In this document: in pieces, positions 26,208-35,651 of the stretch
How the letters are laid out: each line of letters opens with the position of its first letter
Position numbering within the stretch: the stretch's first letter is position 1
Assembly (NCBI GenBank): GCA_030390025.1
Contig: CM059431.1
Span: 114,268,001-114,332,000 of the forward strand
DNA: 64,000 nucleotides
Source: Squalus acanthias
Taxonomy: Eukaryota
Direction: 5' to 3'
Made by a program: the position numbers and the translations under genes
Notes under the pieces: model-generated
What the model was told of the DNA's origin: nothing
Seen by the model: the letters and a program-made list of their open reading frames with translations, nothing else
Database searches by the model: none

Positions 26208-26222
26208 GGGGAAATATTCAGT
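26208..26222 (+). repeat. Left terminal inverted repeat of element A
   Basis: GGGGAAATATTCAGT matches the reverse complement of 27082-27096 at 14/15 positions. Confidence 0.85.
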
Positions 26223-27081
26223 TGGTTTGCACCTCCTGTTAGCGCCTTAAGAGGGCGCTAATGGGGCGCAAAGCAACTTGCGCCTGTGTGCAGCGATGTT
26301 TGCGCCACTCATGAAATTAACTAGACATTTTGCAGCGGCGCTAAACACTACCCCACGATCTTTTACGCCAGCAGATCGTGACGTCAGTCAAGTGTGCAAC
26401 GCCCCGGTAGTGCCCCGGACCGGATATTGAGTGGCGGCCCCTGCCTTGCCACCTGCCGCTAGCAACGACATGTTGAGGGGAGCGTTTTGCAGTAAGGAAG
26501 GGACTGGGGGAGCGCTATTTAAAGGTGAACGCTTTCTGTTTTTTTTTGTTGGTGACATTTTTGCACCACGCATTCTGAGAGAGAGAGAGGAGACTTCTGG
26601 AGAGATTCAACGCTGTGCGAAGGAGTTTTGGGTACTGAGCTGCACTTTGCAGTTTCATTTTGAATTGCCCTTCCTTGTATCGATTTAGAAGAGACTGTGG
26701 TGGCTGCACTCTGAGCTCTTTCCCTGGTTCTCTCCATTGTTCTTTCCAACAGATTTGATGTACAGGTCTCTCCAGGCTGAGATTCAAGATTGCAATGAGC
26801 AGGATGTGGATGGAGAGCAAGGTCAACCCTCCCCTTTAAGAAATGGCGGCGCCATTGTGTCTGTGTTCAATTGCTGACTGACATCACATGAGCTTCGCCA
26901 GCGCTCTGAGGAAGCGCCTCACTCCTTGGCCTTTGTGCCTTAAGACAGGTGTGAAGGGCCTGATTTAGCGCTGCAATCACCTCCAGGGGCGATAAAAGCC
27001 AGTTTGCAGGCGAAGGTGATAATTAGCGCCAGGTGCTCATTTTTGCGCCCGGCCGATATTTTGCACACCAAATGGAGCGAT

Positions 27082-27097
27082 ACTGAATTTTTCCCCC
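27082..27097 (-). repeat. Right terminal inverted repeat of element A
   Basis: ACTGAATTTTTCCCCC; its reverse complement matches the left end with one mismatch and one extra G. Confidence 0.85.
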
Positions 27098-34087: not shown

Positions 34088-34309
34088 GGCCCAGAGTTTA
34101 AGCTCCCTGGCTTCCCGTGGGTGCAAGGATCCCGCGTGCACATACCTACCGCGCCTGCCATTGACGGCTGGGCCCACGGGGACTTCAGCTCCTGGGCCTG
34201 CCCCAACTGCCGGCGCGCAGTGCTTGCATGTCCCAGGTGCGTAGTTAGTGCGATGCGTCCCCTGGGATCCCGTGGGCCATGGAGAGCCAATGGCAGCAGA
34301 CCATCTTTC

Positions 34310-34349
34310 ATTCATAGATTTGACAGGAAGACCTGTCAAATCTATGAAT
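34310..34349. other. Perfect 18-bp inverted repeat with 4-nt loop in B1
   Basis: ATTCATAGATTTGACAGG-aaga-CCTGTCAAATCTATGAAT. Confidence 0.95.
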
Positions 34350-34800
34350 TGAAATCGGCCCCAAAACAACACCTAAACTTCAAATAAATTTTTTTTTAAA
34401 TCACATTTTTAAAATAACTATAAGTTAAATAAATTAACTACTTTACAACAAAAATTTAAATTTTTGAAAAAATTAAAATACTTTTTAACAGTGCTAAAAA
34501 TAAACTTACCTTTCTTTAAAGTATCTAAAAAAGATAAACCTGTTGAAATTCTTTTTAAATTACACTTAATTAACCTCTTACCTTGTTGAAAATGGGTCTT
34601 GCACCTCCTTTTTAAAAGTGCAGGTTCTTCAATACTTACCCTCCCGGAGAAACCAGAAAAAAAAACTAAGTTTGCTGCGTGCGCACAGCCTCTACCGCGC
34701 ATGCGGTTCACCTCTGAACCGCTCCCTTCACGAGACCAGAAGTTCCGATTTCCCGCGCATGCGCAGTGCATGCAGGAAACCGGCACTTCAGGAGGTCTTA

Positions 34801-34829
34801 CGGGTGAGTACACAGTGCGTACTCACCCG
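34801..34829. other. Subterminal 11-bp inverted repeat in B1
   Basis: CGGGTGAGTAC-acagtgc-GTACTCACCCG. The homologue in B2 at 35601-35629 is 10/11. Confidence 0.9.
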
Positions 34830-34851
34830 GCAACTGCCGAATTTTTGGCCC

Positions 34852-34897
34852 ATAATGTACAGGCATTGAGTGCAGGTACCTGTAATGTAAAGGCATT
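34852..34897. repeat. 46-bp satellite remnant (~1.5 monomers) between elements B1 and B2
   Basis: ATAATGTACAGGCATTGAGTGCAGGTACCTGTAATGTAAAGGCATT matches the monomer consensus. Confidence 0.97.
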
Positions 34898-35108
34898 GGC
34901 CCAGAAATTAAACATCGATGGTTCCCGCGGGGGTAAGGATTCCCCGCGATATCACACTCCGCGCCTACCTTTTTGTTTGGGGCCCACACGAACTTTAGTT
35001 TCCCTGTTGCAACCGTGCAGTGCTTGCGTATCGCAGAGGCGCAATTAGTTCGTGCGAGCTCTGGGATCACGTGATTCAGTTAGAGCCAATGGCAGCACAC
35101 CATCTTTC

Positions 35109-35148
35109 ATTCATAGTTTTGACAGCAAGGGCTGTCAAAGCTATGAAT
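35109..35148. other. Homologous 18-bp inverted repeat in B2
   Basis: ATTCATAGTTTTGACAGC-aagg-GCTGTCAAAGCTATGAAT (17 Watson-Crick pairs plus one T.G). Confidence 0.95.
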
Positions 35149-35553
35149 ACTACAAACCCCCAAAAGAACAGCTAAACCTCAATAAAAAATTTTAAAAAGC
35201 CATCACATTAATAAAATAACTATAGTTAAATAAATTAACCACTTTAAACAAAAAATTTAATTTTTGAAAAAATTTAAAATCTTTTTAAAAGTTATAAAAA
35301 TAAACTTACCTTTCTTTAAAGTCTCTAAAAAAGATAAACCTGTTGAAATTTTTTTTAAATAACACTTAATTAACAACTTACCTTGTTAAAAGGGGGTCCT
35401 ACACCTGCTTTCTTTATGTGTAAAATCTTCACCACTTACCTGCGCGTTCAAACCTGAAAAAAAAACTAAGTACACTGCGTGCGCACAACCTGTAGTGCGC
35501 ACGCGGTTCACTTAGGAACCGCCCCCTTTGCAATTCATGAAGTGCCGGTTTCC

Positions 35554-35565
35554 TGCGCATGCGCA
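35554..35565. promoter_or_regulatory. NRF1-type palindrome TGCGCATGCGCA (motif match only)
   Basis: Exact match to the known NRF1 consensus. B1 has GCGCATGCGCA at 34755-34765. Function not shown. Confidence 0.35.
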
Positions 35566-35651
35566 GTGCATGCAAGAAGCCGGCAATTAGGGAACTAATA
35601 CGCGCGAGTACACAGTGCGTACTCTCGCGGATTCGGTTTAATTTTGGGGCC

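Follow-up and report, generated by a model that had tools for sequence, protein, structure and literature searches.

Internal hairpins with paired changes in two copies of a likely Harbinger-type MITE

Two MITE copies in a satellite array

The window analysed here, a 64,000-nt stretch of DNA, is filled almost entirely by a 30-bp satellite, and masking of this satellite left three inserts, one at 26208-27097 and two neighbouring elements, B1 and B2, which carry the hairpins described below (Table 1). B1 and B2 could be aligned end to end with 581 of 751 columns identical (77%), and both are bounded by 16-bp terminal inverted repeats starting with GG. Removal of an element together with 3 bp recreated a satellite-like empty site with 61 matches for B1 and 1456 for B2, compared to 0-1 and 0-2 matches, respectively, for other lengths, which singled out a 3-bp target duplication, exact in B2 and 2/3 in B1. 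The longest stop-free frame spans 134 codons in B1 and 73 in B2, indicating non-coding elements, and the ORFs of at least 100 aa overlapping them (5/5 searched) matched 0 Pfam families. Parts of the stretch were contained in 20 public runs (8 studies, 7 organisms), four of which (3 organisms) were analysed. The contigs mapping to the element in these four runs numbered 20411, 6271, 4181 and 1125, figures that do not represent a copy count; coverage reached 30/30 bins in 4/4 runs, and at the right end of B1 the flanks of 62 contig ends were unlike one another, indicating that the element is dispersed. Based on the termini, the 3-bp duplication, the non-coding character and the high copy number, B1 and B2 are decaying copies from two subfamilies of an abundant, non-coding MITE that is likely of the PIF/Harbinger type. 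An autonomous partner (a DDE transposase plus a Myb/SANT gene sharing these ends) was not found within the window. The hairpins had been flagged by a first-pass annotation as the best candidate for an undescribed system, which was not borne out: real as they are, these hairpins belong to the interior of a transposon, a Harbinger-type MITE, rather than to a separate system.

The two copies share one orientation, occupy different satellite positions and, as two independent insertions only 46 bp apart, suggest a local hot spot. The 62 transitions and 108 transversions by which they differ are clustered in the linkers between stems, a transversion-rich pattern unlike plain CpG decay. The satellite unit itself contains a 10-bp palindrome and a 6-bp hairpin and has a strong G skew, and the array displays longer-period duplications (300-bp blocks, 99% identical, 597 bp apart).

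Table 1. Positions of the elements, hairpins and splice-like signals within the window
Feature	B1 or single position	B2 position	Strand	Description
MITE copy B1	34088-34851			764 bp; terminal inverted repeats 10/16 matching; flanks ATT / ATA
MITE copy B2		34898-35651		754 bp; terminal inverted repeats 14/16 matching; target duplication ATT / ATT
Satellite spacer	34852-34897			46 bp of 30-bp satellite between B1 and B2
Hairpin (i)	34310-34349	35109-35148		B1: 18 bp, inverted TGACAG words, two double changes vs B2; B2: 17 Watson-Crick pairs + one T.G
Hairpin (ii)	34801-34829	35601-35629		B1: 11 bp, loop ACAGTGC, 22 bp from right end; B2: 10/11 pairs in copy, 11/11 with family letter
Hairpin (iii)	34703-34722	35503-35522		7-8 bp; overlaps (v) by 2 nt
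Hairpin (iv)	34116-34136	34926-34948
Hairpin (v)	34677-34704	35477-35504		Decayed in B1, perfect 10 bp in B2
Hairpin (vi)	34739-34789	35539-35589		16-bp outer + 6-bp inner stem (34757-34773); RCAGTGC at loop
Hairpin (vii)	34231-34267	35031-35066		8 bp + inner 4 bp (34240-34257)
Hairpin (viii)	34600-34622	35400-35422		5 bp, 13-nt loop
Splice-like cassette	34500-34670	35300-35470	minus	In AT-rich core; GTAAG donors, CAG/G acceptors
Putative donors GTAAG	34640, 34582, 34510	35440, 35382, 35310	minus
Putative acceptors CAG/G	34655, 34541	35455, 35341	minus

Hairpins and their paired changes

Approximately nine internal hairpins are common to B1 and B2, including four stems beyond the first-pass annotation ((vi) plus inner stem, (vii) plus inner stem, (viii)). 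B1 contained 2 stems of at least 10 bp against 0.13 expected (0/150 shuffles), and in B2 alone the counts of perfect 8-10 bp stems were unexceptional (12-25 of 150 shuffles). Folding z-scores, computed for each strand under RNA or DNA parameters with 30 shuffles each, ranged from -4.8 to -6.8 for the right ends and from -3.5 to -9.3 for the segment of stem (i); the left ends folded barely better than shuffles (-0.1 to -2.3), and the AT-rich core no better.

The evidence for covariation comprises two phased copies (B1 and B2) and unphased family letters, defined as the majority bases in public contigs, which are depth-weighted and may mix subfamilies. Among 173 variant positions 40 were listed, 32 of which were applied and 8, being mixed, were left out. 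On the raw copies, 84 stem pairs comprised 66 unchanged, 12 singly changed and 6 doubly changed pairs (6/18 changed; P = 1e-3). With family letters these became 72, 4 and 8, respectively, so that doubles accounted for 8/12 changed pairs, 7 of them Watson-Crick on both sides (P = 2e-8), and control registers slid along the stems yielded 0-4 doubles. Fourteen of the 40 listed variant letters fall within stems, where 10 restore a pair that the copy has as broken or wobbled, 2 (34603 and 34619) switch together and 2 break a pair whose partner position is absent from the listed ones. Most of the broken pairs are repaired by family letters; the stems were thus intact in the source lineages, where their arms changed together, and are decaying in B1 and B2. 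RNAalifold on the two copies returned both sides changed in 4/45 and 6/63 pairs, several of which are long-range and not trusted. Searches for further phased copies returned 6 loci in a metagenome scan and 5 in a viral scan, all 11 of them chance matches to the short pattern, over no more than 28 bp, with additional chance hits of up to 36 bp.

It is very improbable that chance, CpG decay and the choice of stems together account for these changes. Only two copies are phased, and an unbiased scan of helices paired in both copies found 2 doubles against 0.96 expected on the raw sequence (52/200 shuffles, not significant); with family letters the same scan found 7 against 0.92 (0/200 shuffles). 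Two of these 7 doubles are CpG transitions, producible by two deaminations, but five lie outside CpG, and three of the five are transversions. B1 itself carries a double of this kind at 34603:34619, and one of the two, in stem (v), would vanish if C at 35496 (the majority base in 3/4 runs) goes with G at 35485. Chance is also opposed by the raw copies of stems (i) and (ii), in which all 8 changed positions fall into 4 pairs (P = 1.2e-5; 2/4 of these pairs remain Watson-Crick), and by the tenfold repair versus twofold breakage of pairs by family letters. Arm symmetry was thus maintained in the source lineages, the paired changes being stronger with family letters.

Both changes claimed for stem (i) were found, namely a closing pair altered from G-C to C-G, and A-T altered to T.G at 34318:34341 / 35117:35140, position 35117 being absent from the 40 listed of 173 variant positions. 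Loose contig ends hint at a third variant of this stem, with C to G at 35136 and an unphased partner. For stem (ii), the reported G-C to C-G change at 34803:34827 / 35603:35627, the identical loop (7/7) and the perfect 11 bp of B1 were confirmed, but B2 forms only 10 of 11 pairs, and a T-A to C.T change at 34805:34825 / 35605:35625 had gone unreported. In 4/4 runs, A makes up 98-100% of the depth at position 35605, so the B2-type pair is A-T, a second compensatory change; with family letters, stem (ii) therefore displays two transversion doubles between subfamilies around an invariant loop, and 11/20 flanking bases differ between the copies. Loops of (i), (iii) and (v) differ.

Doubles were not observed in stems (iii), (iv) and (vi). 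Stem (iii) was located where annotated, with 7 pairs unchanged and no covariation. For stem (iv), the 28-bp spacing to the left end, shared by B1 and B2, was confirmed, and no compensatory change is present. The T.G pair of stem (iv) in B1 reflects decay of that copy, as 34118 is C in 96-100% of contig depth, and 34132, which is G in 60-84%, would break a pair unless its partner (not among the listed positions) also differs. Stem (v) was present in B2 as claimed; its description as degenerate in B1 holds, but the degeneracy is largely decay of this copy according to the family letters (34702 is C in 97-99%, 34685 is G in 56-94%). Four singles remain in stem (vi), where family letters at 34748, 35575 and 35579 restore pairs. 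Stem (vii) carries a G-C to A-T double at 34237:34261 / 35037:35060, and family letters at 34238, 34242 and 35033 restore pairs in it. Stem (viii) has one double on raw copies and two with family letters.

Sequence conservation, strand symmetry and motifs

Stem sites, with stems defined from B1 alone, differed at 12/88 positions compared to 91/264 in the unpaired ends (Fisher p = 1.4e-4), corresponding to a per-site stem divergence of 12-14% versus ~34% unpaired; the AT-rich unpaired core (49/299) was nearly as slow as the stems. Slow stem arms indicate that sequence is conserved as well as pairing. The proposal that pairing rather than sequence is maintained was therefore right about the paired changes, which are real, but overstated, given the slow arms and the invariant loop of (ii), and B1 and B2 are themselves decaying. 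Within the satellite, the 10-bp palindrome had 45 doubles against 50.5 expected and 1119 singles (968 distinct units), and the 6-bp hairpin 41 against 32.7 and 1197 singles (946 distinct units). Background arm-to-arm conversion was thus not evident in satellite palindromes, whose short stems make a weak control.

The element ends are CpG-rich and contain words that we take to be promoter-like: NRF1-like words at 34697, 34755 and 34764, CCAAT at 34285, TGACAG, and a GC-box-like word at 34726. These words, which the arms carry, would fit a reading in which pairing is functionless, selection on sequence keeps promoter-like or protein-binding words in the arms, and each round of gap-repair copying re-matches the arms mechanically, as folded single strands undergo mismatch repair or template switching. 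We regard this as possible though doubtful. It accords with the Watson-Crick-only, strand-symmetric stems, and the transversion-rich, clustered differences between B1 and B2 would fit error-prone copying. Stem pairing can be fixed in one event by template switching, according to the available text of PMC8794818. Such re-matching predicts, however, that stem divergence approaches the unpaired level, far above the value seen; moreover, an 18-bp arm exceeds a factor site, no inverted loop separates B1 from B2, and the satellite controls, together with the single-sided decay in B1, speak against re-matching by ordinary replication.

With family letters, 163/168 pairs were Watson-Crick with one wobble per strand, a count in which wobble is under-represented because the stems were found by a Watson-Crick search. 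The folding z-scores were similar on both strands, with no strand bias. An Rfam scan at E <= 1 gave no match, and a looser scan gave 5 weak matches (best E = 0.82; 14-19 bits versus gathering scores of 39-130), so that the suggested Rfam check for a structured RNA matched no family; ARAGORN reported no tRNA. Three specific RNAs were considered and rejected. An iron-responsive element, whose loop the CAGTGC loops resemble, lacks support in that the closing pair and C bulge are absent and no Rfam match was obtained; as a microRNA precursor the stems are too short and the scores weak; and an RNA-guided (Fanzor-like) right-end RNA, for which we saw no evidence, is extremely improbable.

The hairpins might instead be structured RNA within a transcript, either a minus-strand spliced leader or an outward right-end transcript, made from the element or from its parent and kept because being transcribed benefits one or the other, a reading that we consider rather unlikely. 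The minus strand of the AT-rich core contains a splice-like cassette (Table 1) with micro-exon-like pieces of 14 and 30 nt as well as a piece of 43 nt that resembles a mini-intron. Position 34655 is T in 98-100% of contig depth, which restores the acceptor broken in B1, and the family letters at 34655 and 34576 leave the splice-like signals intact in the family, suggesting that an RNA-level constraint may exist. Stem (viii) sits between two putative donors, and slow stems with doubles are typical of RNA. Against such a transcript, the 168 pairs contain one wobble per strand, folding has no strand preference, loops (i), (iii) and (v) are unconserved, the best Rfam score is far under the gathering scores, the promoter-like words that surround the right-end stems place these stems upstream of the cassette, and the first acceptor has no conserved donor before it. 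None of 15 listed of 42 contig joints fits the cassette, the contigs being strandless, and a 109-nt skip among the joints is also present in DNA runs. The splice-like signals could instead be repeated AGGT protein sites.

Each copy contains the word RCAGTG, a motif chosen afterwards, at 4 places where 0.7 would be expected (4 and 2 of 500 shuffles). Its extended form RCAGTGC occupies three conserved places on the plus strand (34217, 34763 and 34812; 35017, 35563 and 35612 in B2), one lying near the left end of each copy and the other two at hairpin loops, those of (ii) and (vi), and it is a candidate protein site. In both copies, hairpin (iv) keeps a fixed distance of 28 bp to the left end, and hairpin (ii) one of 22 bp to the right end. 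The enrichment and fixed distances, together with the role of ORF1 of PIF/Harbinger as a DNA-binding partner in the accessible part of PMC2836001, would accord with dyad sites for a dimeric helper in duplex DNA, whose half-sites co-changed as subfamilies adapted to different partners. This remains improbable, as the nine stems have no arm sequence in common, and the doubles lie outside the shared words, with TGACAG and RCAGTGC unchanged.

A possible role of folded DNA, and related elements

The short list of causes in the first-pass annotation (structured RNA, ssDNA or cruciform, arm-to-arm conversion) was well chosen, and the paired changes behind it are real. Slow stems with mostly paired changes are most simply accounted for by selection on pairing, and stems that are Watson-Crick-only and strand-symmetric point to DNA rather than RNA. 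A MITE is selected only through being copied, from which we infer that the stems would act in cis. We therefore tentatively favour, as a reading still short of probable, that selection acted on base-pairing within the DNA of those source elements that continued to jump. The element ends would fold transiently, as supercoiled cruciforms while the transposition complex assembles or, alternatively, as single strands during the gap repair that fills the donor site again. Folding would hold the subterminal hairpins at their set end distances (28 and 22 bp), and the folded ends may present the repeated RCAGTGC loop to a Myb-like helper protein or a host factor. Double changes would arise in one step by template switching, and after insertion the stems would be lost through single mutations.

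Internal sequence alters the mobility of the PIF/Harbinger MITE mPing in cis, without a shared promoting sequence and with nucleosome occupancy pointed to instead, and in the available text of that study the terms "hairpin" and "secondary structure" occur 0 times (PMC9921582). Homology-directed repair can copy the MITE, as far as the accessible text of PMC10288884 goes, and the available portions of PMC11872487 and PMC3016246 contain nothing on internal hairpins. None of PMC9921582, PMC10288884 and PMC8794818, in their accessible portions, shows a role of folding in a Harbinger.

In a further version that we judge quite unlikely, the family amplifies via a single-stranded intermediate, either DNA or an RNA scaffold, which is folded and whose shape the family's proteins recognise; the subterminal hairpins at fixed end distances and the shared loop word would then be read as in IS200/IS605 or Helitrons. 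If true, a cut-and-paste superfamily would contain a replicative step that reads structure, and the copy numbers of MITEs would become easier to explain. IS200/IS605 and Helitron-type elements have subterminal hairpins at fixed short distances from their ends, and B1 and B2 likewise have hairpins near both ends and a conserved loop. Those elements move as single strands by HUH enzymes, without terminal inverted repeats and target duplication; B1 and B2 have both, and identity with a Helitron or an IS200/IS605-like element was rejected.

The closest counterparts are Tourist-like MITEs of PIF/Harbinger (mPing; Harbinger3N_DR), which, as described in the available parts of PMC2836001 and PMC9921582, resemble B1 and B2 in being short and non-coding with short terminal inverted repeats, a 3-bp target duplication, very many copies and a possibly cis-acting interior. 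B1 and B2 differ in their greater length (~760 bp versus 100-500), in the duplication ATT and in nine internal hairpins with paired changes; such hairpins are not mentioned for mPing in the accessible text of PMC9921582. In the available text of PMC4482050, the Pangu group of the PHIS superfamily combines a 5'-ANT-3' duplication with GG-starting termini, which fits B2 (ATT) and roughly B1 (ATT/ATA), but no vertebrate host is listed, and the group is defined together with its transposase; the ATT target was seen here in two insertions within one satellite, which cannot define a target rule. Hairpin maintenance by template switching, as far as the accessible text of Monttinen and Loytynoja (2022, PMC8794818) describes it, resembles the present case in its Watson-Crick-keeping doubles without wobble intermediates and concerns rRNA and microRNA genes; here, the stems belong to a DNA transposon, and no inverted loop is present.

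The element itself is of an ordinary kind. No description of many co-changing internal stems in such an element was found among the titles and abstract beginnings in the literature searched, and subscription papers, Repbase and Dfam, which were outside this search, may contain one. To our knowledge, such elements are not known to need folding of their own DNA. The family bears on how cut-and-paste elements that encode no protein become so numerous and on the role of their interiors: subfamilies differing by paired changes in many stems offer a direct test case for folding in jumping. If pairing matters, secondary structure would be a cis-signal in a DDE transposon; if it is irrelevant, the family would cleanly document, in nature, how one arm is copied onto the other as the element transposes, and would caution against equating compensatory changes in repeats with a structured RNA.

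Two minor observations concern the termini and the remaining insert. At position 15, the terminal repeats of B1 carry G on either side (34102 and 34837) and those of B2 carry A (34912 and 35637), so that here, too, both ends changed together. The insert at 26208-27097 is an unrelated Harbinger-like element of ~890 bp with termini GGGG..CCCC, which has no real similarity to B1 and B2; it occupies the same satellite position as B2 (after CAGGCATT), and its left end contains three short hairpins with folding z-scores of -3 to -7.
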